Of a stretch of DNA of 46,824 bases, positions 1 to 33,480 are shown one piece after another. Each line of letters begins with the position of its first letter. The first letter of the stretch is position 1. Source of the DNA: a virus (lineage: Duplodnaviria; Heunggongvirae; Uroviricota; Caudoviricetes); IMG/VR virus record IMGVR_UViG_2541047840_000001. One strand, written 5' to 3'. A program made the position numbers and the translations under genes. The notes under the pieces were generated by a model. That model was not told where the DNA came from. It saw nothing but the letters and a program-made list of their open reading frames with translations, and searched no databases.

Positions 1-2037
1 GCATTTGCTGCTGCTAACAATGCAGCAAATTTCAATCGTGAAAACAAAATGATTGGTCTTACGGCAGATATGAAGCCGGAAGAAGTTCAGGCGATGGGGC
101 AGGCGATGCTTGTTACCGGAACGGCCACCAACCAGTTTGCATCTGATATTCAGGCCGCTCAGGGTTTTCTCGTCGCTGCTGGGCAGGATTATAAAGAGGC
201 TCAGGCGAATCTACTAACTATTGGGCGAACAGCTACAGCTACTGGCTCTGATATCCTCGATGTCTCGAAAGCATCATTTACATTAAGTGACTCATTGAAG
301 ATTGATCCATCTCAAATGAAGTCTGCAATGGGGATTCTGGTTCAGGCAGGGAAAGAGGGAAACTTTGAATTTAAAGATATGGCCAAAAATCTTCCTGTGC
401 TTGGTGCTCAGTTCCAGGCATTAAAAATGGGAGGTAAAGAAGCCGCCGCGACGATGGGGGCAGCTTTGCAGATAGCTCGCAAAGGTGCTGCAACTTCGGA
501 TGAGGCTGCTAATAATATGAACAACTTTTTGGCAAAAATACTTTCCCCTGAAACACTAAAAAAAGCAAAGAAAAATTTCGGTGTAGATTTATATAAAATT
601 GTCACAACAGCGCAGAAAAAAGGGAAGAATCCATTCGAAGCTGCAATGCATTCTGTCATGAAAATGACTAAGAACGGAGATCAGAAGTTACTTGGTGAAC
701 TATTTGGCGATATGCAGGTTCAGAACTTTGTTCGTCCGATGATTCAAAACTGGAAGGAATACCAGAGAATCAAAGCAACATCTCTTGGAGCTGGAAGTGC
801 TGTTATTGACCGCGATTTTGCCAACATAACGAAAGATAATGCGGAGCGATTGAAACAATTACGTATTCAGGCTAGCAATGCATCATTAAGTTTTGGTCAG
901 GCCTTGCAACCTGCTTTGAATGCCGCGCTTAGTGTTTTGGTTCCGCTGATTACAAAAATTAGTGAATTTGTAGCTAACAACCCCAATTTTGTGTCTCAGA
1001 TAGTGATGGCGGCAGGTGCGTTTCTAACCATGAAAAGTGTGGTTATAGCGTGTAGGGTAGCTATGCTGGCTTTATCTGTAGCGACAAAGCTAACACCCTT
1101 CGGGTGGATTCAGATGGCTATATCTGCGCTGGTTGCCGCAGGAATATTGCTCTATCAGAACTGGGATAAGATCAGAGATTATGCTGTCAGAGTTTGGCCT
1201 TCTGTTAAGGAATATACAGTTAAATCGTTTGAGACTATAAAAAACTTTATCTTAAACTTTGATCTCAATGGATGGATTATATCTATATTTGGTAAAGCAT
1301 GGGATTATCTTTCCAACATAAACTGGAGTTCGGCAGGAGTAAGAATTTACAGTACATTAATTAGTGCTTTTAAATGGATGTCTCCGCTTCCGTTCTTAAT
1401 TAAAGCATTTAAACTTACAACAAATTACCTTTCTGGCATTAACTGGAGCGAAACAGGAAAGAAAATCATAGATACACTGGTATCTGTTTTTATGCGTTTT
1501 TCGCCAGTTGGACTCTTTATAAGAGCATTCCAATCTGTAACGTCTTATTTATCTGGAATAAACTGGAGTGAGTCAGGTGCAAAAATAATTGAGACGTTAA
1601 TCATTGGGATAAAATCAAAAGCAAATGCTTTAATTAATGAAGTGAAAGGCGTTTTTTCTTCTGTACGTGAGTATTTACCGTTCTCTGACGCGAAAAAAGG
1701 TCCATTCTCACAGCTAACAAAGTCAGGTGGTGCAATAATGACTACTCTGGCATCAGGTGTTAGCAGGAATAACAGCTTACAGAATGCAATAGCAACCAAG
1801 TTCGGGCAATCAAATTTATCACCTCACGGGATATCTGCCGCCGGGACTTCTGGACCTCGCCAGAACGTTAACGCTGTGACTGGTGGAATAACCTATTCAC
1901 CTGTAATCAATCTTCCGGCTGGTTCACCAAAGGAAACTGAGGCGGCAGCTAAAAGAGCATTAGATGCGGGATATTCTGATTTTGAGAAGAAATTGAGTGC
2001 TCATATGTTCCAACAACGGAGATTAAGTTTTGGATGA
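1..2037 (+). CDS. Tail tape measure protein, C-terminal portion (ORF open from window nt 1; track ORF 49..2037)
   Basis: 662-aa ORF with no in-frame stop upstream to nt 1; sits immediately upstream of X/D/V baseplate genes; hydrophobic central segment typical of tape measure proteins. Confidence 0.8.
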   Translation, partial: AFAAANNAANFNRENKMIGLTADMKPEEVQAMGQAMLVTGTATNQFASDIQAAQGFLVAAGQDYKEAQANLLTIGRTATATGSDILDVSKASFTLSDSLKIDPSQMKSAMGILVQAGKEGNFEFKDMAKNLPVLGAQFQALKMGGKEAAATMGAALQIARKGAATSDEAANNMNNFLAKILSPETLKKAKKNFGVDLYKIVTTAQKKGKNPFEAAMHSVMKMTKNGDQKLLGELFGDMQVQNFVRPMIQNWKEYQRIKATSLGAGSAVIDRDFANITKDNAERLKQLRIQASNASLSFGQALQPALNAALSVLVPLITKISEFVANNPNFVSQIVMAAGAFLTMKSVVIACRVAMLALSVATKLTPFGWIQMAISALVAAGILLYQNWDKIRDYAVRVWPSVKEYTVKSFETIKNFILNFDLNGWIISIFGKAWDYLSNINWSSAGVRIYSTLISAFKWMSPLPFLIKAFKLTTNYLSGINWSETGKKIIDTLVSVFMRFSPVGLFIRAFQSVTSYLSGINWSESGAKIIETLIIGIKSKANALINEVKGVFSSVREYLPFSDAKKGPFSQLTKSGGAIMTTLASGVSRNNSLQNAIATKFGQSNLSPHGISAAGTSGPRQNVNAVTGGITYSPVINLPAGSPKETEAAAKRALDAGYSDFEKKLSAHMFQQRRLSFG

Positions 2038-2248
2038 TTATAGAACGGTTCAAGGGGACTCATGGGATAGTATCGCGTTAAAGTTGTATGGTAATGAGTA
2101 CCTGTCTTATCTTCTTATTGATGCTAATACTGAGCACCGCTTTACGGTGCTTTTTTCTGCGGGAATTATTCTTAAAGTTCCTGATGCTCCGGTTATGCCA
2201 ATATCAGTAAACAATTTGCCTCCGTGGAGACGCAATAGTGTTACGTAA
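2030..2248 (+). CDS. Phage tail protein X (LysM-like small tail protein)
   Basis: 72 aa, position between tape measure and gpD-like gene; DSWDSIALKLYGNEY motif resembles the tail protein X family. Confidence 0.6.
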   Translation: MDDYRTVQGDSWDSIALKLYGNEYLSYLLIDANTEHRFTVLFSAGIILKVPDAPVMPISVNNLPPWRRNSVT

Positions 2249-3239
2249 AACGCTTTTTGATGTTATATATCAGAATGTAAATATTACCGCTCATATGTCA
2301 CCTGATGTTTTGTCAATGTCTTATACAGATAATGAAGATGGTCAGGTCGATGATATTTCTATTATATTAAAAAATGATGATGGGAAATGGTCTGGAGACT
2401 GGACACCTAAAAAGGGTGATTTTATTGATTTGAGCTTTAAGCCTATAAATCAAATCGTCCTTGAGTGCGGGAAATTCCAGGTGGATGGCATAACTTGCTC
2501 TGGACCACCTTCTGTTGTTGAGGTGACTGCTGTTTCTGTTCCTGTTTCATCAGGCATTAGACGTGATTTAAAAAGTAATGCATGGGAAAAAACAACTCTT
2601 AAAGATATAGCAACTTCTATAGCTAAATTAGCTAACCTTGAACTGTTGTTTCTTATTGATGGTGATAGTAATCCATATTATGCGCGTGAAGATCAAATGG
2701 AGGAAAGCGATTTAAAATTTCTCCATCGACTTTGCCAGGATGAAGGGTTGTCGTTAAAGGTCACTGATAGCCAATTAATAATATTTGCTCAAGAGATGTT
2801 TGAGCAAAAAGATCCTATCGCTACGCTTACGTTAGGTATTGATGAGATAATCAGATATAGCTTTAGCACACAATCTACAGATTTGTATAAAAGTTGCACG
2901 TGCAAATATCGCGTACCTAAAAAAAGAAAGTCGCTTTCGTATACTTGGGTAGATCCATCCGTAGAAGAAGGGTCGAATCTTAAGATAAGAAAACTGGTAG
3001 CTAATTTAGATGAAGCAAAACGTAAGGCAAAGGCTGCTTTGCGGCTTAAAAATAGATATCAAAATACCGGATCTTTAGTATTGGTTGGAGACACCAGATT
3101 GGTAGCTGGTGTAACTATAAATCTGGACGGATTCGGTTTATTTTCTGGAAAATATCTTATATCGAAAGCTGTGCATTCAATTGGGGCTAGTGGTTATACC
3201 ACCTCGATTGATGTCCGAAGAGTAATTAATGGGTATTAA
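2238..3239 (+). CDS. Late control gene D-like tail/baseplate hub protein
   Basis: 333 aa, GTG start overlapping upstream stop; size and position match P2 gpD / Mu gp44-like proteins. Confidence 0.75.
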   Translation: MLRKTLFDVIYQNVNITAHMSPDVLSMSYTDNEDGQVDDISIILKNDDGKWSGDWTPKKGDFIDLSFKPINQIVLECGKFQVDGITCSGPPSVVEVTAVSVPVSSGIRRDLKSNAWEKTTLKDIATSIAKLANLELLFLIDGDSNPYYAREDQMEESDLKFLHRLCQDEGLSLKVTDSQLIIFAQEMFEQKDPIATLTLGIDEIIRYSFSTQSTDLYKSCTCKYRVPKKRKSLSYTWVDPSVEEGSNLKIRKLVANLDEAKRKAKAALRLKNRYQNTGSLVLVGDTRLVAGVTINLDGFGLFSGKYLISKAVHSIGASGYTTSIDVRRVINGY

Positions 3240-3241
3240 TT

Positions 3242-3862
3242 ATGAATGATTTAGAAACATTATTACGTCAGACTATAAGAGTTGGCGTTGTTTCTGATAT
3301 TGATGATGGTGATGTTACAGCAAGAGTTACTTTCGATGATCAGGATAACGTCACTTCGGCAAAGTTATCAGTTATTGTGAAAAATACAGATAAGAATGCT
3401 GATTACTGGATGCCAGATATTGGTGAGCAAGTTTTGTGTATCTTTCATCCCGCAGGGCCGCAACAAGGTTTTATTCTTGGTAGTTTTTATGATGAAACAC
3501 AGAAGCCGCCATCTAATACTGTTAATAAACGCGTCATTAGATTTAATAACGGAACTCGTATTGAGATAGACAGAGAATCTAATTTACTCCTTGTTGATGC
3601 TGTCGGAGATGTAACCGTTAAGGCTACAGGAACCGTAACTATTGATGCTCCAGAAACCATCATTACCGGAAATGCTACAGTTGAAGGATTACTAACCTTC
3701 AAAGGTGGAATGAAAGGATCTTCTGCTGGAGGTGTTGCAGCTACAATTTCTGGGAATGTTAAGGTTGTTGGTGGTGATATAGATGTTGATGGGATTAAAT
3801 CTAAAGGCCACCATCACACAGCTCAGGGGGAATACGCTTCGACAACGGAGGCTCAGGCATGA
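3242..3862 (+). CDS. Baseplate spike protein (gpV-like)
   Basis: 206 aa, Gly/Val-rich C-terminal repeat region typical of gpV spike; gene order. Confidence 0.75.
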   Translation: MNDLETLLRQTIRVGVVSDIDDGDVTARVTFDDQDNVTSAKLSVIVKNTDKNADYWMPDIGEQVLCIFHPAGPQQGFILGSFYDETQKPPSNTVNKRVIRFNNGTRIEIDRESNLLLVDAVGDVTVKATGTVTIDAPETIITGNATVEGLLTFKGGMKGSSAGGVAATISGNVKVVGGDIDVDGIKSKGHHHTAQGEYASTTEAQA

Positions 3863-4326
3863 TTGTGGGTATGCTTGGTACAATGCCTTTTGTTGCCTCA
3901 TCAATAGTAGTGAATACGTTCAACAATTTTAAAAGGACGTCAAAGCGTCGTGTAGCGCGCCATGATGTTATTGGGCTTAAACCTGTTCTGGAGGATATAG
4001 GTCCAGATCTGGATGAAGTTAGTTTTAATATGCGGTTGGATACAACACTTGGCATTGTTCCATTGGCTGCGCTTTCATTACTTAGGACAATGCAATCAAT
4101 TCAGGAAGTAAATCCTGTTGTAATTGGTATTCAGTATTTTGGTAATTTTATAATTACAGATATAGAGGAATCATGGACTTATTTCGGTCCAACTGGGAAT
4201 CCGCGAGTGATTATCGTCGGCATTAAATTACAGGAAGTCGGACAGACCTCTCTGAAAGAAGCATTAGTTGATATTGCTGGCAATATAGAGTCAAAAACTA
4301 GAAGTGCGTTAGGTAAATTATTATGA
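3859..4326 (+). CDS. Tail/baseplate-associated protein of uncertain function
   Basis: 155 aa ORF translationally coupled between gpV-like and gpW-like genes; no confident family assignment by eye. Confidence 0.5.
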   Translation: MIVGMLGTMPFVASSIVVNTFNNFKRTSKRRVARHDVIGLKPVLEDIGPDLDEVSFNMRLDTTLGIVPLAALSLLRTMQSIQEVNPVVIGIQYFGNFIITDIEESWTYFGPTGNPRVIIVGIKLQEVGQTSLKEALVDIAGNIESKTRSALGKLL

Positions 4327-4643
4327 ATAATACGTTTACCATATCATCACCTTCTTACTCGATTGATTGGTCGCCCAAAACAGTTGTAGAAGAAGTTTTG
4401 CAAAATGTCTCTACTATTATTAATACTCAGATTGGCACTGTACCATATGCCAGAAAATTAGGAGTTAATTCAAGTCTTGTTGATAGCCCCAGTCCAATTT
4501 TTATTGCTACAGCAACACGAGAAATAATTCAAAAAATTAGTGAGTTTGAGCCTAGAGCGATTATCCATTCTGTTACTTTTGAAAGAACGGACGTTTCTGA
4601 TGGTTTTATTAGGCCAAAACTTGTGATAGGAGTTAGAGAATGA
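4323..4643 (+). CDS. Baseplate wedge protein (gpW / gp25-like)
   Basis: 106 aa, size and position preceding gpJ-like gene. Confidence 0.7.
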   Translation: MNNTFTISSPSYSIDWSPKTVVEEVLQNVSTIINTQIGTVPYARKLGVNSSLVDSPSPIFIATATREIIQKISEFEPRAIIHSVTFERTDVSDGFIRPKLVIGVRE

Positions 4644-5764
4644 CGTTGCCGCGTGGTGGTTTGCCAGATATTACTTTCGCAGATTCTAACCCGACTGATA
4701 TAACAACTCGTTCAATCAGGGCTTTTGAGAGTATAACAGGTGAAACATTAGCACCTGCTGATCCACGTAGATTATTCATCTTATCATTGTGTGAGATTAT
4801 TATACAGCAAAGAAAAGCTATCGATTTTTCTGCAAAACAAAACCTTCTTACATATGGTGAAGGTGAATATCTCGACCATATAGGCTATCTGACGGATACG
4901 CCTAGGCTGGAAGCTCAATCTGCCTTGACTACATTTGAGTTTAATCTGTCAACAAAATTATCGGGGATATATACAATACCTTCTGGCACTCAAGTTTCAA
5001 CTGGAAATGGTGTTATTTTCCAAACAGATGTTTTGTTGGAAATACCTGCTGGGAAAACAGTTGGTACAGTCTCAGGATATGCTGTTATACCTGGTTTATC
5101 GGGGAATGGCTTTTTACCAGGGCAAATAAATGAGTTGGTGACTCCGTTGCCGTATGTTTCCAGCGTAAGGAATCTAACAACATCTAATTCTGGTGCTGAT
5201 ACAGAGTCAGATGATAATTATGCTGAAAGAATAAAACTGTCGCCGGAAAAACTGTCTACAGCAGGGCCGGAGGATTCTTATAAATATTGGACAAGAACAG
5301 CCAATCAGAATATAAAAGATGTGAATGTATATACACCATCGCCCGGAACTGTAGAAATCCGTTCTTTGTTAGAGAACGGAGATATACCTTCTGATGAACT
5401 ATTGGAGCAGATAAATAGCGTTCTCTCTGCAACTAATATTCGACCATTCACAGATAAAGTTCTTGTTAAGAAACCAGAGAGCATTGAATACGATATAGTA
5501 ATTAAATACTGGATTAACTCATCGGACAAAAACAGAACAACATTAATTCAAAGTGAGGTTGAGAAAGCTATTGATGAGTATAAACAATGGCAACGTTCGG
5601 TTATGGGAAGAGATATAAATCCAGATGAAATTATTCAACGTTTAAAAAATGCTGGGGCTAAAAGATTAGAAATATCAAGTCCTGTATTTACTGTGGTTGG
5701 AGAGACGCAGGTCGCCAGAGAGAGAAATATAAATTGCCAGTATGCGGGGTTAGAGGATGGCTGA
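4640..5764 (+). CDS. Baseplate protein J-like
   Basis: 374 aa, coupled to W and I genes; typical baseplate J size and order. Confidence 0.8.
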   Translation: MTLPRGGLPDITFADSNPTDITTRSIRAFESITGETLAPADPRRLFILSLCEIIIQQRKAIDFSAKQNLLTYGEGEYLDHIGYLTDTPRLEAQSALTTFEFNLSTKLSGIYTIPSGTQVSTGNGVIFQTDVLLEIPAGKTVGTVSGYAVIPGLSGNGFLPGQINELVTPLPYVSSVRNLTTSNSGADTESDDNYAERIKLSPEKLSTAGPEDSYKYWTRTANQNIKDVNVYTPSPGTVEIRSLLENGDIPSDELLEQINSVLSATNIRPFTDKVLVKKPESIEYDIVIKYWINSSDKNRTTLIQSEVEKAIDEYKQWQRSVMGRDINPDEIIQRLKNAGAKRLEISSPVFTVVGETQVARERNINCQYAGLEDG

Positions 5765-6338
5765 TATCTTTAATGTTAGCTTGTTGGATGTTTTACCTCC
5801 TAACTTAGCTAGAGATCCGAACGTGATAGCTATGTCGAAAGCTATCGATGATGAACTACAAGCAATTAACAATTTAATATATAAGACAGAAATATATAGC
5901 GTTGTTGATAACCTGGACTCAGTTGTTCTCGATCATTTAGCTTGGCAATGGAATGCTGATACATGGAGGGATAGTTGGCCTGTATCGTTAAAGCGTTCTG
6001 TTTTTAAATCAATAATACGAACAAAGCGAATAAAGGGTACAAGGGCAGCGGTTGAAGATGTAGTAAATAGCTTGGGTGGAGAGGTAAACATAACAGAATG
6101 GTTTGAAACATCACCACCTGGCGAGCCATATACAGCCTCAATTGTTGCTTCGATTAACTCTTTTGATGGTGCCGTTCCTTCGAAAGAAATGTTGGAAGAT
6201 ACGTTAAGAAGTATCAAGAGCGCAAAGTCGGCAAGAACATTATTTACATTTTCGCAAGCAGCCAATGTTTCTGGTGGTGTCGGTATTGTTGGTGCTTGTC
6301 AGCCTGTGTCTTATGTACGATTAATTGGCGAGTGCTAA
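5757..6338 (+). CDS. Tail protein I-like (baseplate, fibre attachment)
   Basis: 193 aa, immediately upstream of tail fibre gene. Confidence 0.7.
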   Translation: MADIFNVSLLDVLPPNLARDPNVIAMSKAIDDELQAINNLIYKTEIYSVVDNLDSVVLDHLAWQWNADTWRDSWPVSLKRSVFKSIIRTKRIKGTRAAVEDVVNSLGGEVNITEWFETSPPGEPYTASIVASINSFDGAVPSKEMLEDTLRSIKSAKSARTLFTFSQAANVSGGVGIVGACQPVSYVRLIGEC

Positions 6339-6368
6339 TTCGCAATTTGTTAATTCAAGGAATTAAGC

Positions 6369-8723
6369 GTGAGTAAATTATTATTTACGATGACTGACGC
6401 CGGGCGTCAGGAGCTGGTTAATGCCAACAAAACAGGAACAAATAAAGTTGAGATTGTTTCTGTTGGTTTAGGTAGTAGATATTATGTCACGTCAACCTCA
6501 CAAACAAATATAACAAACGAAATAAAACGACTTACCACAATAGGTGGCAAAGTTGTTTCCCCTGATACAATTCATGTAACAGCGAAGGATGATAGTAAAG
6601 ATGAGTATGTTGTCCATACAATAGGATTGTATACGAATAAGGGGGCGTTGTTTGCTGTATACTCACAAGAACAAGCAATAATAAATAAAGCATCATCTAC
6701 TATCGCTTTAATATCAAGTGATATAGCAATTAAGACTCTTGATACTAAAAATATTACATTTGGTGATATTGAGTTTATTAATCCTCCCGCGACCGAAACT
6801 GTTGTTGGGGTGGCAAGATTTGCTAATGAACAAGAAATTGAGGCAGGTACAGATGATTCCCTTGCTGTTTCAGCAAAGCGGCTTAAGCAAGCCATTGTGA
6901 AACATGAGCAATCACGTAATCATCCTGATGCAACTTTAACCTCAAAAGGCTTTGTTCAACTTAGCAGCGCCACCAATAGCGCGTCTGAAACGCTTGCTGC
7001 GACGCCTAAGGCTGTTAAGGCAGCATATGACCTTGCTAACGCTAAATACACCGCACAGGACGCTACCACAGCGCGAAAAGGGATTGTTCAGCTCAGTAGT
7101 GCCACCAACAGCACGTCTGAAACGCTAGCAGCAACACCAAAGGCTGTTAAGGCAGCGTATGATCTTGCGGCCGGAAAGGCTCCGTCCAATCACACGCATT
7201 CGTGGGAGCAGATAACAAATGTGCCTGTAGCTTCACTGACTGTAAGGGGAATAACTCAGCTCAGTAGTGCCACTAACAGCACGTCTGAAACGCTGGCTGC
7301 GACACCAAAAGCTGTTAAGGCGGTAATGGATAAAACGAACAAGAAAGCGCCCTTAAACAGTCCTGCGCTGACCGGAACACCAACAACACCAACTGCGCCA
7401 AAAGGTACTAACAATACTCAGATCGCAAGCACGGCTTATGTTATGGCTGCGATCGCTGCCCTCGTGGACTCGTCGCCTGACGCACTAAATACGCTGAACG
7501 AGCTGGCTGCGGCGTTGGGCAACGACCCGAATTTTGCGACCACCATGACTAACGCGCTTGCGGGTAAGCAACCGAAAGATGCCACCCTGACGGCGCTGGC
7601 CGGGCTTGCTACTGCGGCAGACAGGTTTCCGTATTTTACGGGGAATGATGTCGCCAGCCTGGCAACTCTGACAAAAGTCGGGCGGGATATTCTTGCGAAA
7701 TCGACCGTTGCCGCCGTTATCGAATACCTCGGTTTACAGGAAACGGTAAATCAGGCTTCTGGCGCATTACAGAAAAACCAGAACGGCGCAGATATTCCTG
7801 ATAAAAGATTATTCCTGCGCAATATTGGAGCAACAAATTCAACAACCATGTCTTTTAATGGTGGTGTAGGATGGTTCAAACTGGCAACTGTAACAATGCC
7901 ACAAGCCAGTTCCGTGGTTTACATAAGCCTGATTGGTGGTGCAGGGTATAACGTTGGCTCCCCGCAGCAAGCAGGCATCTCTGAGCTGGTTCTGCGTGCC
8001 GGAAATGGAAATCCAAAGGGTATTACTGGTGCATTATGGCGACGGACCTCGGTTGGATTTACTAATTTTGCATGGGTGAATACATCCGGTGATACCTATG
8101 ACATTTATGTAGAAATAGGTAATTACGCCACGGGTGTTAATATCCAGTGGGATTATACAAAGGATGCCACTGTACAAATTCATACATCACCAACTTATAC
8201 AGCGAATAAACCGACAGGCCTGACAGATGGGACTGTATATGTAATTTACAGTTCGCACATAAAACCGACTGCTGCTGATGTTGGGGCGTTGTCATTATCT
8301 GGTGGTCAATTGAATGGTGCACTGGGTATCGGAACATCCAGTGCTCTTGGCGGTAACTCGATTGTTTTGGGTGATAATGACACGGGCTTTAAACAAAATG
8401 GCGACGGTAATCTGGACGTTTATGCTAATAACGTCCATGTTATGCGCTTTGTCTCCGGCAGCATTCAAAGTAATAAAACCATAAATATTACAGGGCGTGT
8501 TAACCCCTCGGATTACGGTAACTTTGATTCCCGTTATGTGAAAGATGTTCGCCTGGGTACGCGTGTTGTTCAATTGATGGCGCGTGGTGGTCGTTATGAA
8601 AAAGCCGGACACGCAATTACCGGATTAAGAATCATTGGTGAAGTAGATGGCGATGATGAAGCCATCTTCAGACCAATACAAAAATACATCAATGGCACAT
8701 GGTATAACGTCGCACAGGTGTAA
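6369..8723 (+). CDS. Tail fibre protein (constant N-terminal part plus invertible variable C-terminal part)
   Basis: 784 aa, GTG start; three tandem SSATNS-SETLAATPKAVKA fibre repeats; C-terminus ends PIQKYINGTWYN like the alternative fibre end on the minus strand; gix-like site inside the gene. Confidence 0.85.
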   Translation: MSKLLFTMTDAGRQELVNANKTGTNKVEIVSVGLGSRYYVTSTSQTNITNEIKRLTTIGGKVVSPDTIHVTAKDDSKDEYVVHTIGLYTNKGALFAVYSQEQAIINKASSTIALISSDIAIKTLDTKNITFGDIEFINPPATETVVGVARFANEQEIEAGTDDSLAVSAKRLKQAIVKHEQSRNHPDATLTSKGFVQLSSATNSASETLAATPKAVKAAYDLANAKYTAQDATTARKGIVQLSSATNSTSETLAATPKAVKAAYDLAAGKAPSNHTHSWEQITNVPVASLTVRGITQLSSATNSTSETLAATPKAVKAVMDKTNKKAPLNSPALTGTPTTPTAPKGTNNTQIASTAYVMAAIAALVDSSPDALNTLNELAAALGNDPNFATTMTNALAGKQPKDATLTALAGLATAADRFPYFTGNDVASLATLTKVGRDILAKSTVAAVIEYLGLQETVNQASGALQKNQNGADIPDKRLFLRNIGATNSTTMSFNGGVGWFKLATVTMPQASSVVYISLIGGAGYNVGSPQQAGISELVLRAGNGNPKGITGALWRRTSVGFTNFAWVNTSGDTYDIYVEIGNYATGVNIQWDYTKDATVQIHTSPTYTANKPTGLTDGTVYVIYSSHIKPTAADVGALSLSGGQLNGALGIGTSSALGGNSIVLGDNDTGFKQNGDGNLDVYANNVHVMRFVSGSIQSNKTINITGRVNPSDYGNFDSRYVKDVRLGTRVVQLMARGGRYEKAGHAITGLRIIGEVDGDDEAIFRPIQKYINGTWYNVAQV
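6948..7330 (+). repeat. Three in-frame tandem coding repeats (about 40 aa each) inside tail fibre gene
   Basis: Near-identical blocks GxxQLSSATNSxSETLAATPKAVKA repeated three times in the translation. Confidence 0.7.
7717..7742. other. gix/hix-like recombination site (left crossover site of invertible segment)
   Basis: TTATCGAATACC-TC-GGTTTACAGGAA; inner half-site is a perfect match to the Gin/Hin-type half-site TTCCTGTAAACC as recalled. Confidence 0.65.
7726..7798. repeat. 73-bp perfect inverted repeat, left copy (IRL) of invertible fibre segment
   Basis: 7726-7798 is the exact reverse complement of 10708-10780 (checked base by base). Confidence 0.85.
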
Positions 8724-8726
8724 ATT

Positions 8727-9254
8727 ATGCAGCATTTAAAAAATATTAAGTCAGGAAATCCAAAAACAAAAGAGCAATATCAGCTAACAAAGAATTTTGA
8801 TGTTATCTGGTTATATACAGAAGACGGTAAAAACTGGTATGAGGAAGTAAATAACTTTCAGGACGACACCATAAAGATTGTATACGACGAAAATAATATT
8901 ATTGCCGCCATCACCAAAGATGCCTCCACGCTTAACCCTGAAGGTTTTAGCGTTGTCGAGGTTCCTGATATTACCGCCAACCGACGTGCTGATGACTCAG
9001 GTAAATGGATGTTTAAGGATGGTGCTGTGATTAAGCGGATTTATACGGCTGACGAACAGCAACAACAGGCCGAATCACAAAAGGCCGCGTTGATTTCCGA
9101 AGCTGAATCAGTCATCCAGCCGCTGGAACGCGCTGTCAGGCTGAATATGGCAACAGACGAGGAACGCACACGACTGGAAGCATGGGAACGCTACAGCGTT
9201 CTGGTCAGCCGTGTGGATACGGCAAATCCTGAATGGCCACAAAAGCCTGAATAA
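8727..9254 (+). CDS. Tail fibre assembly protein (chaperone)
   Basis: 175 aa directly after fibre gene; N-terminus [22 protein letters not shown] is paralogous to the minus-strand copy at 9283..9816. Confidence 0.8.
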
Positions 9255-9259
9255 AAATT

Positions 9260-9279
9260 AAGGCCCGATAGCGGGCCTT
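9260..9279. terminator. Hairpin between convergent fibre-assembly genes (bidirectional terminator-like)
   Basis: AAGGCCCG-ATA-GCGGGCCTT stem-loop followed by T-rich tract. Confidence 0.55.
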
Positions 9280-9282
9280 GTT

Positions 9283-9816
9283 TCATTCTGGTTGTTCTGG
9301 AAACGTTACTGGCAGGCTGGAGGTGTCTGTGGATTCGACCTTCTGCGCATAGAGCATCCACTCGGTTAATTTTTGTTTATTCTCGTTGGAAATGATACCC
9401 AGCCGTAGCTGTGAGTCCCATAGCTGGGTTTTATCCCTGACGAGCTGTAGCAGGCTTTGCTTTTCATTTTCCGCTTGTTGCCTCTGCTCTTCCTCGGTAT
9501 AAGTTCGCTTTATCACTACGCCATCTTTGAACAACCATTTCCCCGAAATATCAGCCCGGCGATTTGCTGTAATATCAGGTAATTCAACGACGCTTGCGCC
9601 TTCCGGATTAATTGCTGAAACATCCTTTTCAATACAAATAATAACGCCGTTATGGTCATAGACCATTTTCAAAGTGTCTGGCTGGAAATTCTTTTGTTCC
9701 TCATACCAGTTTTTTCCATCATCTGAATAAAGCCATTTGATGTTAAATTGCTTTGTTAGCTGGTATTGCTCTTTTGTTTTAGGGTTGCCAGCAGTAATGT
9801 TTTTTAAGTGCATCAT
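9283..9816 (-). CDS. Alternative tail fibre assembly protein
   Basis: 177 aa paralog of 8727..9254 in inverted orientation. Confidence 0.8.
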   Translation of the reverse strand: MMHLKNITAGNPKTKEQYQLTKQFNIKWLYSDDGKNWYEEQKNFQPDTLKMVYDHNGVIICIEKDVSAINPEGASVVELPDITANRRADISGKWLFKDGVVIKRTYTEEEQRQQAENEKQSLLQLVRDKTQLWDSQLRLGIISNENKQKLTEWMLYAQKVESTDTSSLPVTFPEQPE

Positions 9817-9818
9817 CG

Positions 9819-10707
9819 TTAAATACTCCCCGCGTTATACCACGTCCCATTAATGCAATACTGAATTGGCCTTGCCTGTGTTGTATCAATTAATTTATCA
9901 CGGTTTCCGTTAACTGAACCCGTAACGACATAACCTGACCTGTCAGACCAGCCGGGGCCATTCCATGTCTGAACAGATGACAGACCGCCAAGGCGAATAC
10001 CTGTAATAAACCTTGAGTTACATTCTGCCCGCGTGTATGCACCAACATCTCCCGCAGAGGGTTTGCGGGTCGTGGTGTAAAACTCTGACCAGTCAGCCTC
10101 AAATCCATAACCATCACGCGCTGAACGATAAAAAATACCGCCGTTCTTATAATTCACACGGAACTGTACGGCAGGGCAACTCCCCGCATTCATATTGAAG
10201 TGGAGGATTAATGTCGATGCACCGCTGATATCTGCATCATAAACACCGCTATTCCAGTTCCAGCCAACAGCTTTATCATTTGCAACCCTGCTTCCTGTTT
10301 GCCCTAAAGCAAATGCAGGCTGCTGGTTTTTCGTGTTGTAGTCTCGTCGCCAGCCAGGAGCGTAAGCATCACCATGATTAATATAAGTGAATTGAGCGTT
10401 AGTAATTCCGCCACCGCTGGACGTGCTCGGCGTGGTAACGCGTATGGTCATTGCGCCGCGAGTGCCAATAACTTCCACCACAGCACCTGCAAGACAAATA
10501 TTTCCGCAACCTGTATCTGTAATGACCTTATTATTTGCATAAGCCCATGAGCCTTTGCACATCCAGTAAGGATGGTTAAATGCCCCCTGGCTCTCCAGCC
10601 ACGAAATAAATTGCGCGGTTGTCCAGACCTGACTATCGCCACCAATATTCAGCCATGCGCTATATGCGCGGCAGGCCCCAATATTTTTGGTGAAGGTATC
10701 TTTTCCC
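9819..10707 (-). CDS. Alternative tail fibre variable C-terminal segment (Sv'-like, no own start; expressed after inversion)
   Basis: Minus-strand frame is open from 10780 down to the stop at 9819; translation through the IR reads LGLQETVNQASGALQKNQNGADIP, identical to the fibre gene at the left IR; reading frames match across the crossover. Confidence 0.75.
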
Positions 10708-10780
10708 GGAATATCTGCGCCGTTCTGGTTTTTCTGTAATGCGCCAGAAGCCTGATTTACCGTTTCCTGTAAACCGAGGT
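10708..10780. repeat. 73-bp perfect inverted repeat, right copy (IRR)
   Basis: Exact reverse complement of 7726-7798. Confidence 0.85.
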
Positions 10781-10789
10781 TTTTGCGAA
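10764..10789. other. gix/hix-like recombination site (right crossover site)
   Basis: TTCCTGTAAACC-GA-GGTTTTTGCGAA, strong match to recalled gix/hix sites; central dinucleotide is inverted relative to left site. Confidence 0.65.
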
Positions 10790-10853
10790 TTGCCTCTGTG
10801 TCGTCTGAACGATATTTTTTTCCGCTTTTAGCAACAATCGCGGTTTAGAAAGT

Positions 10854-11408
10854 ATGCAATATGGTTATGCGAGGGTGTCAACTTTTGACCAGAATTTGGA
10901 ATTACAACTGGAGGCGCTCAGGAGTTCAGGATGTGACCAGATTTTTGAAGATAAAATATCCGGTGCTAAATCAAAACGACCAGGACTTGATAAGCTACTT
11001 AAGGTGTTACGGCCGGGCGATACGGTTATTGTCTGGAAGCTGGACCGAATGGGGCGTTCTCTGATTCATCTTGTTGATTTACTTAACCATTTTTTATCAA
11101 ACAACATTGAGTTTATTTCGATTACGGAAGGGATAAAAATTAGCACTTCAATTGGCCGCTTTGCCTACACGATGCTGAGTGCAGTCGCAGAGATGGAGCG
11201 GGAAAATATGATTGAAAGAACGCGTGCAGGATTGGCGGTGGCAAGGGCTAACGGCAGGATAGGAGGACGCCGCTCAAAATTGGCACCAGAGCAATGGGAA
11301 CAGATCGGAAGGCTTATTGCGAATGGTGTTTCACGTAAGCGGATAGCGATTATCTTCGATGTTACCTTATCCACGCTTTACCGCAGGTTTCCGGCTGGGA
11401 ATCATTGA
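10854..11408 (+). CDS. Serine recombinase, DNA invertase (Gin/Hin/Cin/Pin family)
   Basis: 184 aa; N-terminal YARVSTxxQ catalytic-serine motif and C-terminal HTH; sits next to a gix-like site. Confidence 0.9.
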   Translation: MQYGYARVSTFDQNLELQLEALRSSGCDQIFEDKISGAKSKRPGLDKLLKVLRPGDTVIVWKLDRMGRSLIHLVDLLNHFLSNNIEFISITEGIKISTSIGRFAYTMLSAVAEMERENMIERTRAGLAVARANGRIGGRRSKLAPEQWEQIGRLIANGVSRKRIAIIFDVTLSTLYRRFPAGNH

Positions 11409-11591
11409 CTGGAGTTAGGCCAGTAGTATGATGCTCGCAAAACGAGATCCAATTTAGATCCTTTTACTGGTGGATTATCGTTCGATCAGTGAGAGACTTC
11501 GTGCATGACCGAAAGTGTTGTGGTAGAGTTCTCTGAAAACCACGTAACGTGGTTATGATTGTGGGTGTCTGGTTGGAAAATGACCAGATAT

Positions 11592-11710
11592 GGAAACAAA
11601 AAGCCCGCAGATAAATCTGCGGGCTTCTTGCGACATCCACGGAAAACCAACAAAAACAATCCATGGGCGCCTCAACAAATCCCATTATACGTTGGTTTTC
11701 CGTGGACGCA
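11592..11710 (-). ncRNA. Candidate CopA-like antisense RNA in repA leader (prediction)
   Basis: Minus-strand intrinsic terminator (stem 11601-11626 followed by TTTTGTTTCC on minus strand) plus a 15-bp perfect inverted repeat (11637-11651 / 11691-11705) in the leader just upstream of repA ATG. Confidence 0.3.
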
Positions 11711-11721
11711 AGAGCGAACAT

Positions 11722-12570
11722 ATGGATAGACCAATGCCGTCTCTACGTTCAGCTTACGTTTGTAATTTGTCGCCGGAGTTCCAGCCTCCAAAGCACCATA
11801 CGCACAAGCTGCCGCTAGTGTTATCTGATGCTTTACAGCGCATTAATGGTCGTGATCTTACGTGTGAGGTTGCGTTCTACGTTAATCAGCCGTCAGAGCG
11901 GAAGCGCCGGATAAACGAGCATCGTCGTCGGGCGATTAATGCTGTGATTGCTGCGATTTTGCACCATGTAAACATCATTTCTAAGCGGGTTCTGGCCAGT
12001 GCTGAGGCGTTGGCTGATTTTTGCGGCCTGTCTACCGTATCCGAAGCTGGGAACAAGTCTATAACACGCTGTACAAGGGCGTTGTCGCAACTGAAAGCGT
12101 TAGGTTTTATTGATTATGAACGTCGCTGGGATCGGGTGAATAAACAGTATTGGCCAGCGAAAATAGAGATTCGTGATCAACTGCTGGAAACCGTTGGTAT
12201 TACTGAACAAGCATGGAGACGTGCGGTTAGCCAGAAACTTAATTACTTCAATGCGAAGAATAGCGAACGGCTTAAAAAAGCGATAACGGAGGCTGATTAT
12301 AAGCGTATTGTTATTCAGGAGCAGATGGAGAATGTATGGCGTCAGAGGAAGACAGCCAGAGAGATAAAGGCAAAACAGAAAGCAGCGGAGAGAGCTGCGC
12401 GTCTTGTTCAGGAAAAGGGAGAGGCCGAACTTCGTCATCAAATCACTAGAGAGGTTAGCCAGGAATTTGCTGATGGCATGTATCCTGGTGCTGACCTTGC
12501 ATATTTACGATCCCTCGTTGAGCAGCGTTATAACAGGTTAAGAAAGACCTGGAAATCACTCCAACATTAA
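11722..12570 (+). CDS. repA: Plasmid replication initiator RepA (IncFII RepA1-like)
   Basis: Translation contains SITRCTRALSQLKALGFIDYE, resembling IncFII RepA1 as recalled from memory; probable ATG at 11722 (track ORF begins 11590). Confidence 0.8.
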   Translation: MDRPMPSLRSAYVCNLSPEFQPPKHHTHKLPLVLSDALQRINGRDLTCEVAFYVNQPSERKRRINEHRRRAINAVIAAILHHVNIISKRVLASAEALADFCGLSTVSEAGNKSITRCTRALSQLKALGFIDYERRWDRVNKQYWPAKIEIRDQLLETVGITEQAWRRAVSQKLNYFNAKNSERLKKAITEADYKRIVIQEQMENVWRQRKTAREIKAKQKAAERAARLVQEKGEAELRHQITREVSQEFADGMYPGADLAYLRSLVEQRYNRLRKTWKSLQH

Positions 12571-12599
12571 CCCACCTGAATGATGAATCCGGTTTTACC

Positions 12600-12850
12600 G
12601 GAGGATTATCTACGTCGCAATAAAATATCTGTTCAAAAAACAATCTAAATTAATTTTCTCTAAACCTGAACACAGCAAAAATATCGCCTTCACAGGCATC
12701 GGCTAATAAAGTTATCCACAGTTTTGATATGTATATGCAAATGGTTTTTTATAATAGATGCACTAAACAAATAAATGCAAAATCACTTTCTTTTATTAAG
12801 ACTTTCTTTATTTAACTTACGCAGGCTTTGCCTGTGAATATGTTCGCCCT
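12600..12850. other. Putative plasmid origin region (AT-rich, DnaA box TTATCCACA at 12712-12720)
   Basis: Perfect DnaA-box 9-mer plus AT-rich tract directly downstream of repA, as in IncFII oriR. Confidence 0.5.
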
Positions 12851-13213
12851 TGCAGCGAGCTAAAGCTCGCGCCGGTTCGAGTCGCTACGCTCAAATATAC
12901 CTCCTCCGGCACTTGCCGGAGGCATGGAGCAGCCTGATCATCCTTTTCGAAACGGCACGTTTCGAACTATACAAAATCAATTTATATAAGGCCGAAATAA
13001 GGCCTACGGCCGGGCTTTGCAGGAGGAAGGGGCGAGCCTTATCAATAAACGTCGATAAATACGCACACAGTAGCCATCAGAACGCGATAAAACGTAAGAA
13101 ACATCATTTCCTATTAGACATAGAAAACTTGTCTTATACGCAATGTAGTAAATTTCTATTGCCACATAGGAAAAGATTTCCTACCATCGTAGATATAATA
13201 AATGGAGATGGTT

Positions 13214-13501
13214 ATGGATAAAGATACTGTTTTAAAAATGTTGAATCCGGCTTGTTTAAAAAAAGCGGATGAATGGGAATCTCCTACATGTGGAGAAGTT
13301 CGGGCAGTCATTGGCCTGACTGGAATGAGCGGCTCGCAGTTGGCCAAAAAACTAGGCTTAAAAGATAGTCGCAATGTTCGCAACTGGCAGATGTTAAAGG
13401 AGTCCACATCCAGATCCAGCATTCCGTATGCAGCCTGGGCGCTGCTGTGTTACTTCGCTGGGTTAGGGTTAATCTTCATTGATAACAAAACAGATGTTTG
13501 A
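13214..13501 (+). CDS. Small HTH DNA-binding protein (CII-like / XRE-like, tentative)
   Basis: ATG at 13214 preceded by GGAG; helix-turn-helix-like segment GMSGSQLAKKLGLKDSRNVRNWQ. Confidence 0.5.
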   Translation: MDKDTVLKMLNPACLKKADEWESPTCGEVRAVIGLTGMSGSQLAKKLGLKDSRNVRNWQMLKESTSRSSIPYAAWALLCYFAGLGLIFIDNKTDV

Positions 13502-14024: not shown

Positions 14025-14033
14025 GGATTGAGC

Positions 14034-14381
14034 ATGTGGACGGTACTTTTTAGCCAGCGATTTGACGACTGGCTAAATGAGCAAGAAGACGCTCTTCAGG
14101 AAAAGGTTTTGGCTGATTTGAAAAAGCTACAGGTTTACGGACCTGAGTTACCCAGGCCATATGCCGATACCGTAAAAGGTTCTCGGTACAAAAATATGAA
14201 AGAGCTTCGCGTTCAGTTTTCTGGCCGTCCGATAAGAGCCTTTTATGCGTTCGATCCGATTCGCCGGGCCATCGTTCTTTGTGCAGGAGACAAAAGTAAC
14301 GATAAACGGTTTTATGAAAAACTGGTGCGTATAGCTGAGGATGAGTTTGCAGCACATCTGAACACACTGGAGAGCAAGTAA
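14034..14381 (+). CDS. Type II toxin, HigB/RelE-family-like (toxin-first arrangement)
   Basis: About 115 aa, small basic protein; stop overlaps start of a downstream HTH antitoxin-like gene (TAATG). Confidence 0.7.
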   Translation: MWTVLFSQRFDDWLNEQEDALQEKVLADLKKLQVYGPELPRPYADTVKGSRYKNMKELRVQFSGRPIRAFYAFDPIRRAIVLCAGDKSNDKRFYEKLVRIAEDEFAAHLNTLESK

Positions 14382-14680
14382 TGAGAACATTAGATGAGGT
14401 GATTGCCAGCCGTTCACCTGAAAGCCAGGCGCGAATTAAAGAAATGGCAGATGAGATGATTCTTGAGGTCGGCTTGCAGATGATGCGTGAAGAACTCCAG
14501 TTATCACAAAAACAGGTTGCTGAGGCGATGGGTATAAGCCAGCCAGCAGTAACAAAGCTGGAGCAGCGCGGAAATGATTTAAAGCTGGCGACATTAAAGC
14601 GTTACGTTGAAGCTATGGGAGGCAAATTAAGCCTGGATGTTGAGCTTCCTACAGGAAAGCGAGTAGCGTTCCATGTCTAA
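14381..14680 (+). CDS. HTH (XRE-family) antitoxin, HigA-like
   Basis: 99 aa, HTH segment LSQKQVAEAMGISQPAVTKLE; downstream position typical of HigA. Confidence 0.7.
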   Translation: MRTLDEVIASRSPESQARIKEMADEMILEVGLQMMREELQLSQKQVAEAMGISQPAVTKLEQRGNDLKLATLKRYVEAMGGKLSLDVELPTGKRVAFHV

Positions 14681-31483: not shown

Positions 31484-32107
31484 ATGACAAAACATCTTAA
31501 TGTGGTTTCTTTACCACTTTCTGTGTTGATTGGTTATGAAAAGAACGCTCGCACACACTCCGTGGAGCAGGTAGATCAGATTGTTGCCAGCATACAGGAG
31601 TACGGATGGACTAATCCGATCCTGATAGACGAGAACAACGTTGTAATTGCTGGTCATGGTCGAATTGCTGCGGCCACTCAGTTGGGGATGGATGATGTTC
31701 CCTGCATTGTTCTGGAAGGGCTAACGGAGAATCAGAAGAAGGCATATCGTCTGGCCGACAACCGTATTCCGCTGAATGCTGGTTGGGATGAAGAGTTGTT
31801 AAGCGCGGAGCTTGCAGATCTTGCGGCCGATGATTTTGCTCTGGACTCAATTGGTTTTACTCAGCGCGAACTGGATAACTTATTGAGTGCGGCGGTCTAC
31901 GATGACACAGAGGGTATGGATATCCCATTTGAGAAGGATGAGGCCAAATCAGGCGTAAAAGTTCAGTACCTGTCATTTGGAGGTCATAAAATCCCGGCAA
32001 CGGATGAGGAAGCGGATCGTTTTGACTGCGCGGTGTCTCGTTATGTTGATGATAATGGCAGCTATATCGGATTTGTATCCGCATTGCTGGCTGGGGAGGT
32101 GTGCTGA
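31484..32107 (+). CDS. ParB N-terminal (ParB/Srx nuclease-like) domain protein
   Basis: IAGHGRIAAA motif; clear paralog of 34774..35364. Confidence 0.65.
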   Translation: MTKHLNVVSLPLSVLIGYEKNARTHSVEQVDQIVASIQEYGWTNPILIDENNVVIAGHGRIAAATQLGMDDVPCIVLEGLTENQKKAYRLADNRIPLNAGWDEELLSAELADLAADDFALDSIGFTQRELDNLLSAAVYDDTEGMDIPFEKDEAKSGVKVQYLSFGGHKIPATDEEADRFDCAVSRYVDDNGSYIGFVSALLAGEVC

Positions 32108-33480
32108 TGCTTCACCTCAATTACGACATAACGCACCTACGCGGTGCGGAATATAACCCGCGTTTTATCGGTGAGGATGATCTTGCGAGGCTGGCGGAAA
32201 GCGTCAGGGAGCTAGGGCTTGTGAAGCCATTGATAGTGCGCGGCGATTTGCTGGTGGCGGGACACCAAAGGACGAAGGCGCTACGTAAGTTGGGAATAAC
32301 GCGTGCTGCGGTGTATGTGTTGCCCTGTGAAACGACGGTATACGACGAAGTACGGTTTAACCAACTGCATAACGGAACGGATTTTGATAGCGGAGATGAG
32401 CGTTGCAGGGTGTCCGGTCTGGAAGATAAGCATGGTTTTGTTCAGGTATCGGCAAGCCAGATCTCAGGCAATATGCGCGCGAAAATGGCATATGTTCGAA
32501 AGAACATAGCGGAACTGGTTATCAAGTATGGTCCGTGGGGTGGTTGTGTTGCTACTCAGTCTGGCGAGGTTATTCACTGTGCTCAGTATGCATTAGCAGC
32601 GAAGATGACGCGCACACCGCTAACGGTGTTTGTGATCCCTGATGTTGAGAAGGAAAAATACCAAAGTTATCTGAATAAAACTTATGGTGTATTTGAGTAT
32701 TCTCATCTGGAGAAAACAACATACATCCAGACGTATGCGCAGCTTATGCGGTTGCGTAATGGTGGCAGCCTGAAATCAAACCTGTATGAGTCGTTGATCC
32801 TCCCGATCATTGCCAAGACGCCAAGAGGAATTGATTTTGGTTCGGGGCAGGGAGACTACGCGCGAATGCTCAGGGCAAAGGGATATAACCTGCATGATCT
32901 CGAGCTTTTCCGCCGTAAGGGCGCTGGAAACACTCTGGATAGGGCCGCAACAAACTGGATGATTGATACGCTGGTGGACGACTTAAAAACGCGAGGGCGT
33001 TACGACTACGTGATTTGCGATAGCGTTTTGAACTCGGTCGATAGTGTCGAGGCTGAATGGTCCGTTCTGACGGTTCTGAAAGGCCTGTGTAAAGCTGGTG
33101 GGTCAATATTCTTTTCTGGTCGTAGCCGTGGAGAGCTGGAAACAGTCCTGAAGCAAACACAAGCGGCGAGTTCCAAAAGCCGGCTTTATTTTATTGATCA
33201 TAACGGTTTTACCGCGTTGTACCGGAAGGGGCACTGGTTTTACCAGAAGTTTCACTCTGATGATGAAGTGAAGCAGTTGTGTCGTGTACATGGTTTCAGG
33301 ATTAAGCGGTCAATATTCAACTGTAAGAGCTGGTATTTGCACGTCATTAACGATGATTCCCTTAGTTGGGCGAGTCTGGAGAAAGCTGTTCGTTTTGAGT
33401 TTGAGTTGCCGTTGCCTGGTGGTTCAACAATCGGACGATCTGATGATGTGCTGGCGGCTTTCCGGCCGTTGATTAAGTAG
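32107..33480 (+). CDS. Fusion protein: ParB-like N-terminal domain plus SAM-dependent methyltransferase-like domain
   Basis: N-terminal LVAGHQRTKAL ParB-like motif; central GIDFGSGQGDY Rossmann SAM-binding motif; ATG overlaps upstream stop (TGATG). Confidence 0.6.
   Translation: MLHLNYDITHLRGAEYNPRFIGEDDLARLAESVRELGLVKPLIVRGDLLVAGHQRTKALRKLGITRAAVYVLPCETTVYDEVRFNQLHNGTDFDSGDERCRVSGLEDKHGFVQVSASQISGNMRAKMAYVRKNIAELVIKYGPWGGCVATQSGEVIHCAQYALAAKMTRTPLTVFVIPDVEKEKYQSYLNKTYGVFEYSHLEKTTYIQTYAQLMRLRNGGSLKSNLYESLILPIIAKTPRGIDFGSGQGDYARMLRAKGYNLHDLELFRRKGAGNTLDRAATNWMIDTLVDDLKTRGRYDYVICDSVLNSVDSVEAEWSVLTVLKGLCKAGGSIFFSGRSRGELETVLKQTQAASSKSRLYFIDHNGFTALYRKGHWFYQKFHSDDEVKQLCRVHGFRIKRSIFNCKSWYLHVINDDSLSWASLEKAVRFEFELPLPGGSTIGRSDDVLAAFRPLIK

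Follow-up and report, generated by a model that had tools for sequence, protein, structure and literature searches.

A tail-fibre inversion segment of the Mu G/P1 C type on a plasmid prophage

Introduction

Invertible tail-fibre segments are known from bacteriophage Mu, whose G segment is inverted by Gin at gix sites, and from bacteriophages P1 and P7, whose C segment is inverted by Cin at cix sites; Hin of Salmonella, acting at hix sites, is a small serine invertase of the same kind. In Mu, P1 and Salmonella an enhancer with two Fis sites lies in the 5' part of the invertase gene, and the repeats of the P1 C segment are about 0.6 kb long. Here we describe a comparable locus in a stretch of 46,824 nucleotides (nt) from a virus of the Caudoviricetes (IMG/VR record IMGVR_UViG_2541047840_000001); this whole stretch is referred to below as the window, and all positions are given in it unless stated otherwise. 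An initial annotation, made from the letters alone, had proposed that positions 7717-11408 hold an invertible tail-fibre segment and an adjacent invertase gene. Our analysis of the recombination sites, the reading frames, the invertase and the natural relatives of this locus leads us to conclude that it is very probably a functional two-state host-range switch of the Mu G/P1 C type, carried on a plasmid prophage of about 48 kb.

Results

The inverted repeat and the recombination sites

The locus contains the following features (aa, amino acids):

6369..8723, plus strand: tail-fibre gene S as it stands in the present assembly, 784 aa, from the list of open reading frames (ORFs), with three Phage_fiber_2 repeats (Pfam E 2.9e-59)
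7717..7742, no strand assigned: left gix-like 26-bp site, TTATCGAATACC-TC-GGTTTACAGGAA, with the crossover dinucleotide at 7729-7730, in codon 454 of S
7726..7798, no strand assigned: left arm of the 73-bp inverted repeat, coding for residues common to both fibre forms (LGLQETVNQASGALQKNQNGADIP)
7731..8723, plus strand: Sv, the tip expressed in the present orientation, a mosaic according to protein and DNA comparison
8727..9254, plus strand: U, assembly chaperone for Sv, 175 aa (Pfam Caudo_TAP E 8.4e-37)
9283..9816, minus strand: U', chaperone for the alternative tip, 177 aa, silent as oriented (Pfam Caudo_TAP E 3.3e-36)
9819..10775, minus strand: Sv', the alternative fibre tip, 318 codons, from the ORF list and frame analysis, 96.5% identical to the Sv' of Mu
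10708..10780, no strand assigned: right arm of the 73-bp inverted repeat, the exact reverse complement of the left arm
10764..10789, no strand assigned: right gix-like 26-bp site, TTCCTGTAAACC-GA-GGTTTTTGCGAA on the plus strand, with the crossover dinucleotide at 10776-10777
10854..11408, plus strand: serine DNA invertase of the Gin/Cin/Hin/Pin kind, 184 aa (Pfam Resolvase E 2.6e-44, HTH_7 E 2.9e-13)
10872..10961 (invertase nt 19-108), plus strand: putative recombinational enhancer, placed by its position in P1, by G-N13-C 15-mers and by synonymous conservation

Direct comparison bore out the perfect inverted repeat of 73 bp that had been claimed at 7726-7798 and 10708-10780: the two arms are exact reverse complements, and the match could not be extended by a single base at either end. 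A repeat finder returned the pair as 83 nt with 95% complementarity (7723-7805 versus 10701-10783). The two gix/hix-like 26-bp sites with inverted central dinucleotides, TC on the left and GA on the right, were likewise found where the initial annotation had placed them. Each consists of two 12-bp half-sites around a 2-bp core, and the sites lie in inverted orientation with an identical core, TC, when they are read in the same sense; on the minus strand the right site reads TTCGCAAAAACC-TC-GGTTTACAGGAA, and its plus-strand centre is hence GA. Cores and inner half-sites are identical between the two sites. The gix site of Mu, TTATCCAAAACCTCGGTTTACAGGAA at both ends of G, is matched at 24 of its 26 positions by the left site and at 23 of 26 by the right site, and these two and three mismatches are confined to the outer half-sites. 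Allowing up to three mismatches, no gix-like site beyond these two was found in the whole 46.8-kb window, and 100 shuffles of the window gave none at all. This is a simple two-site system and not a multi-segment one; a shufflon-like or Min-like multi-site arrangement was rejected because the window holds two sites only. Chance or an assembly artefact as the origin of the repeat was also discarded, since the same anatomy is kept in hundreds of records.

One fibre gene with two exchangeable tips

The S gene starts with GTG at 6369, an in-frame ATG at 6390 being preferred by some annotations of relatives, and follows on the plus strand a Baseplate_J gene (4640-5764) and a Tail_P2_I gene (5757-6338). 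Its product consists of a constant part, Sc (aa 1-454), and the variable tip Sv. The two tip-chaperone cassettes are convergent, with Sv-U on the plus strand and U'-Sv' on the minus strand. Between 9819 and a stop codon at 10845-10847, the minus-strand frame of Sv' is uninterrupted and includes the right repeat. After this stop no ATG, GTG or TTG occurs in the frame for 94 codons, the first being an internal ATG at 10562 (codon 95). Since an in-frame start is absent before codon 95, Sv' would be expressible as a full tip only once it is fused to Sc. When the segment 7729-10777 was inverted in silico, an uninterrupted S' of 772 aa was obtained, which ended at window position 9819 and was directly followed by U' (9816-9283). 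The crossover TC falls in codon 454, and the constant N-terminal part is thereby in frame with either of the two C-terminal tips.

These results agreed with what had been proposed for the fibre gene, namely that the left site lies within it, that frames are compatible across the crossover and that the alternative tip has a chaperone of its own at 9283..9816, the latter being a Caudo_TAP protein 96.6% identical to U' of Mu. The alternative C-terminus reading on the minus strand through the right repeat was also recovered as an open frame; its span had to be corrected from 9819-10707 to 9819-10775.

Two observations concern the sequences around the tips. Within the Sc-coding region, a 93-nt direct repeat is present three times at 6944-7336 (100%, 84% and 70% identity; spacings of 132 and 168 nt), and the copies are the counterparts of the three Phage_fiber_2 repeats identified by Pfam. 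Beyond the right site, 22 further codons of the minus-strand frame (TAIVAKSGKKYRSDDTEAIRKNLGL; 10781-10847) are open and lack a start codon; this stretch looks like a remnant of the constant part of another fibre.

Both orientations occur in natural relatives

The question of inversion was approached through database records, by building both post-inversion junctions and searching a plasmid collection with them. The hypothetical Sc-Sv' junction was found contiguous, at 95-98% identity, in five other plasmids, and the plasmid of E. coli ATCC 25922 (48,488 bp) contained both hypothetical junctions. Two pairs of nearly identical E. coli phage-plasmids were then distinguished by orientation: CP057727 and CP099296, from two pig-farm isolates (each 48,056 bp), share 99.96% identity and are set apart by a single clean inversion between the repeats, and the same clean inversion separates CP158444 from CP009073, two assemblies of the ATCC 25922 plasmid (each 48,488 bp; 99.96% identity). 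A further ATCC 25922 record, CP032086, holds two copies of the segment 48,488 bp apart in opposite orientations, encoding WP_077784313.1 and WP_145772481.1.

The ATCC 25922 plasmid also allowed the exchange point to be located. Position 19 distinguishes its two sites (A/G); the variant base is carried along by the segment, and the outer half-sites remain attached to the flanking DNA. Crossover is thus confined to ACCTCGGTT (site positions 10-18, around TC), and so narrow an interval of nine bases around the central TC points to site-specific recombination by a serine invertase that cuts at the site centre; homologous exchange along 73 bp of repeat would not be expected to give it. The invertase of this plasmid is 98.9% identical to that of the window. 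Taken with the isogenic pairs, these data from close relatives indicate that a segment of this kind flips in nature. The search for both orientations that had been recommended with the initial annotation thereby gave an indirect, positive answer from near-identical relatives, including a single strain and a single record; for the copy in the window itself, flipping would be expected by extension from them.

Three features of the database records deserve mention here. NZ_CP032086.1 is a 'linear' record of 94,204 bp made up as a concatemer of two 48,488-bp units; it represents a genuine dimer or else results from assembling a mixed population. In NZ_CP158444.1 the silent tip (7066-8025 of the retrieved stretch) is called an incomplete pseudogene, 'missing N-terminus', by the NCBI pipeline. 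More generally, database records do not annotate the segment as invertible and call the silent tip a partial 'phage tail protein'; pseudogene calls for silent tips are a systematic mis-annotation of invertible fibre cassettes.

Relationships of the cassettes

Alignment of the two fibre tips to Mu S/S' and P1, also recommended at the outset, gave very different results for each of them. The alternative tip Sv' is 96.5% identical to Sv' of Mu over 318 aa. Sv resembles the C-terminus of P1 Sv in its last 72 aa (90% identity), and no other part of it matches the tips of Mu or P1. The middle part of Sv (about aa 500-712), which differs from both Mu and P1, is shared at the DNA level with P88 and with the Mu-like Yersinia phage vB_YpM_5; the start of Sv is encoded by the repeat and common to Sv'. 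Such mosaicism suggests that the end that matches the chaperone and the central part of Sv are exchanged separately. Both chaperones are close to their counterparts, with 96.6% identity of U' to Mu U' and 95% to P1 U', and 95.4% identity of U to P1 U and 94.3% to Mu U.

At the DNA level, window positions 8512-10783 are 90-95% identical to the invertible segments of Mu, D108, P7 and P1. The 5-kb region as a whole is 99.1% identical over its full length to Yersinia phage vB_YpM_39 (OR545053), and similar copies are carried by a family of non-mobilizable Escherichia plasmids of about 48 kb. The hosts of this plasmid-prophage family are E. coli, Citrobacter and Yersinia, and the plasmid of ATCC 25922, a quality-control strain, belongs to it. 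Phage vB_YpM_5 likewise has the whole segment, at about 88% nucleotide identity, and an invertible G segment and a receptor in the rough core of the lipopolysaccharide have been reported for this phage (PMC10434027). From these comparisons, the segment is seen to travel as a cassette between Mu-like phages, P1/D6-like plasmid prophages and the plasmid family of about 48 kb.

The invertase and its catalytic residues

The invertase gene lies outside the segment, starts 64 nt past the right site and is transcribed away from the segment. Residues 2-181 of its product align without gaps with Gin of Mu (PDB 3uj3; E 2.5e-62), the match to gamma-delta resolvase reaching only 3e-30, and identity is 54% to Gin and 55% to Cin. 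A mutated catalytic serine had been named as the finding that would speak against an active invertase; Ser9 is intact, stands in the motif YARVST and aligns with Ser9 of Gin. The equivalents of gamma-delta Y6, R8, S10, D36, R45, D67, R68, R71, E118, R119, E124 and R125 are all present, and they are invariant or nearly so among 116 homologue clusters. Judged by its fold, these catalytic residues, the design of its sites and the Fis-contact residues described below, the protein is assigned to the Gin/Cin/Hin/Pin kind.

The start of helix E sets the protein apart, since it reads F-A-Y-T-M-L in the window and F-F-F-H-V/I-M in Gin, Cin and more distant matches. FAYTML was found in 85 of the 116 homologue clusters (69-99% identity), from Escherichia, Salmonella, Citrobacter, Buttiauxella and Hafnia, and this distribution indicates that the invertase belongs to a distinct, conserved natural clade with an altered helix E. 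Wherever enough flanking DNA was recovered, members of the clade adjoin convergent fibre and chaperone pairs, including those of P1/D6-like elements and of a Citrobacter plasmid of the same family as the window. In a P1/D6-like locus the outer half-site TTCGCAAAAACC sits 74 nt upstream of an 86%-identical invertase gene, the same spacing as in the window; gene and proximal half-site therefore form a module that moves as one. When one genome per species was scanned with the invertase alignment, one close clade member was recovered (Buttiauxella), and the other hits were mostly distant recombinases.

A P1-like contig of the Joint Genome Institute (JGI), Ga0397029_0002 (1-4092 of the retrieved stretch), encodes a 74%-identical invertase, upstream of which lie five ORFs with a Collar domain and two chaperone ORFs, on both strands. 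By its gene content this region looks like a multi-segment inversion system of the p15B Min kind, not a two-state switch.

Regulatory residues, enhancer and promoter

Compared with Hin, the window protein departs from two regulatory signatures that have been described for that invertase, as judged from the alignment. The helix-E control signature (the phenylalanine switch F105/F106, H107 and M109) is absent from it, and the region of Hin Lys47 reads Asp46, Lys47 and Lys50, with an acidic residue at the first position. Lys47 is Lys in 15 of the 15 invertases aligned in PMC3798978; among the clusters of the clade, 73 have Asp, 27 Asn and 14 Lys at the equivalent position. In Hin, substitutions of Phe105 and Met109 often give Fis independence, and H107Y is the standard activated mutant (PMC4513852, PMC4817059). 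Because helix E is altered and Asp or Asn replaces Lys47, at positions where laboratory substitutions free Hin from Fis and the enhancer, the clade might be a natural, widespread sub-lineage of Gin/Hin with rewired control, either inverting free of Fis and enhancer or gating subunit rotation differently. We consider this unlikely. Hin Q151, R154 and L155 are proposed Fis contacts conserved only in enhancer-dependent invertases (PMC3798978), and the window protein has the equivalent Q150, R153 and L154, as do 111-112 of the 116 homologue clusters; this conservation argues against a loss of Fis control.

For the enhancer, the record of P1 annotates one at cin nt 19-90. According to its title, work by Kahmann et al. 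from 1985 reportedly placed the stimulatory site of Mu within the invertase gene. In the window gene, G-N13-C 15-mers occur at invertase nt 22-36 and 71-85, 49 nt apart from start to start and at the same positions as in gin. Locating the enhancer by the Fis consensus was nevertheless dropped, since the homologous first site in cin fails the simple G-N13-C pattern. Among 11 clade members, conservation of synonymous codons was 0.88 over codons 25-36 and 0.65 over codons 1-18, compared with about 0.45-0.5 over most of the gene. An enhancer embedded in the 5' end of the invertase gene is thus probable on comparative grounds, and dependence of the invertase on Fis and this enhancer appears likely.

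A Rfam search of 6000-13500 returned only matches below the curated thresholds.

The element that carries the segment

The gene that follows the invertase codes for an IncFII-type RepA (11590-12570), and the window also contains genes for a tape-measure protein, a baseplate hub, a gpA-type terminase, a lambda-type portal, a regulatory protein with ORF6N and Rha domains, and a Gp49/HTH pair. The element is a plasmid prophage with tail genes of the myovirus type. In the 5' region of repA (11594-11707) we noted a GC-rich hairpin (11597-11630) and a perfect 16-nt inverted repeat (11636-11651 and 11691-11706), with Rfam matches only below threshold and on the minus strand; the region may serve to control the replicon through an antisense RNA or a leader. 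The Gp49 (DUF891) protein and the HTH_3 protein that follows it are encoded at 14028-14680, and their relatives are annotated as a toxin of the RelE/ParE family and its antitoxin; if that annotation holds, the pair would be a plasmid-maintenance module. At 32101-33480, an ORF of 459 aa codes for a methyltransferase domain together with a ParB N-terminal domain, the latter a weak match below the Pfam cut-off.

No publication on the switch in the plasmid family of about 48 kb was found, literature coverage being incomplete. Two papers that were retrieved were set aside: one on the 'pseudolysogenic' Yersinia phage HQ103, an unrelated phage of 32 kb, and one on phage-plasmids of enterotoxigenic E. 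coli, which covers P1-like and SSU5-like elements only.

Discussion

The following course of events can be proposed for the switch. In the present orientation, late transcription through the baseplate genes would yield S, in which Sc is fused to Sv, together with U, and the convergent Sv'-U' pair would be silent for lack of a start codon. Dimers of the invertase would bind the two 26-bp gix-like sites, probably in partnership with host Fis bound to the enhancer in the 5' end of the invertase gene, cut at the central TC with a 2-bp stagger, turn one half-site pair through 180 degrees and reseal the strands. About 3,045 bp would be inverted in this way, joining Sc in frame to Sv', a tip nearly identical to that of Mu G(-), with U' taking the place of U. 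A lysogenic culture would then be a mixture releasing particles with either fibre, and the host recognised would presumably depend on the tip. In this scheme the window copy is expected to flip as its relatives do, the neighbouring invertase, and not another resident one, is taken to be the catalyst, and Fis and the enhancer are predicted to be required.

Several observations weigh against such a switch. Five ATCC 25922 records in the plasmid collection seem to share one orientation, which may reflect slow switching or records that are not independent of each other. Relative to Gin, Cin and Hin, the window protein carries Ala, Tyr, Thr and Leu at the equivalents of Hin F105, F106, H107 and M109, and Asp at that of K47. 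Positions 105 and 109 are critical for the control of Hin, and at 106 all substitutions abolish inversion except Tyr, which is itself very weakly active (PMC4513852). The adjacent gene might accordingly be weak or inactive, and a different Gin/Pin-family invertase resident in the cell might invert the segment in trans. E. coli often carries such segments, matches having been obtained in 2,204 of 5,426 genomes. Invertases of this family can recombine each other's sites, and catalysis in trans could therefore also lie behind the inversions observed in relatives. Against this explanation, the FAYTML motif does not look like decay, being spread over five genera and 85 of 116 clusters at 69-99% identity with all catalytic residues kept; genes of this clade adjoin convergent fibre/chaperone pairs wherever the flanks suffice; and invertase gene, 74-nt leader and outer half-site move jointly between phage types. 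We therefore regard inversion in trans as very unlikely.

Homologous recombination could occasionally take place between perfect inverted repeats as long as 73 bp, and assemblies alone do not identify the recombining enzyme, so that the orientation differences could be ascribed to general RecA-dependent exchange between the repeats. In ATCC 25922, however, the exchange point falls within nine bases that surround the centre of a gix-like site and lie at the outer extremity of the repeat, the pair CP057727/CP099296 inverts with only about 25-34 bp of repeat, and a dedicated, conserved invertase accompanies consensus sites; an origin by RecA is extremely improbable. It could also be argued that the copy in the window is a frozen relic whose parts look intact and which no longer switches, for instance because the invertase is not expressed. 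A consensus scan of 10500-11800 revealed no sigma-70-like promoter upstream of the invertase gene, and the nearest record, vB_YpM_39 (99.1% identity), has the same orientation as the window. Yet the repeats are perfect, all five ORFs are intact, cores and inner half-sites are identical between the sites, and an invertase 98.9% identical, with the same sites, accompanies the inversions in ATCC 25922, which makes a relic highly improbable. A working switch that is served by its own invertase thus accounts best for the locus.

The switch itself is unsurprising, being of the textbook Mu G/P1 C type, and adds a further well-preserved case of programmed fibre switching on a common family of plasmid prophages. 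In practical terms, two correct assemblies of such a plasmid may disagree by a 3-kb inversion, and the silent tip is then reported by annotation pipelines as a truncated 'phage tail protein'. Specialists might find interest only in the altered helix E of the invertase clade, which carries natural changes at residues known to control activation in Hin.

Among the described systems, Mu G with Gin offers the same order of elements: Sc, gix, Sv-U, the convergent U'-Sv', gix and an invertase gene transcribed away from the segment. Near-identical 26-bp sites with the common TC core, a segment of about 3 kb and Sv', U' and U proteins of 94-97% identity are shared with it. The window differs from Mu in its 73-bp repeat, compared with 34 bp in Mu, in an expressed tip Sv that is not Mu S, and in an Sc that is not Mu's and is of a long type (454 aa) with Phage_fiber_2 repeats, encoded after P2-type baseplate genes. 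Its invertase shares no more than 54% identity with Gin and carries another helix-E motif, and its replicon is a plasmid prophage with an IncFII-type RepA, whereas Mu is a transposing phage. P1 and P7, with the C segment and Cin, are likewise plasmid prophages with an invertible fibre tip; U and U' of P1 are each 95% identical to those of the window, the last 72 aa of Sv 90%, and the DNA of the part shared with P1 and P7 is 90-95% identical. Unlike in the window, cin of P1 is placed at the opposite side of the segment and reads towards it, with cixL overlapping the 3' end of cin, and the cix sites have a TT/AA core instead of TC and a different inner half-site. Hin and hix of Salmonella, which serve as the mechanistic reference, share with the window the small serine invertase kind and the 26-bp site design, and the Fis-contact residues Q151, R154 and L155 have conserved equivalents in the window protein (PMC3798978). 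Hin flips a promoter, whereas a coding segment is flipped here, and the window protein differs at the equivalents of K47, F105, F106, H107 and M109. By its anatomy, its sites and three of its four cassette proteins, which show the defining features of the class, the window system is a member of the Mu G/P1 C class of invertible tail-fibre segments.

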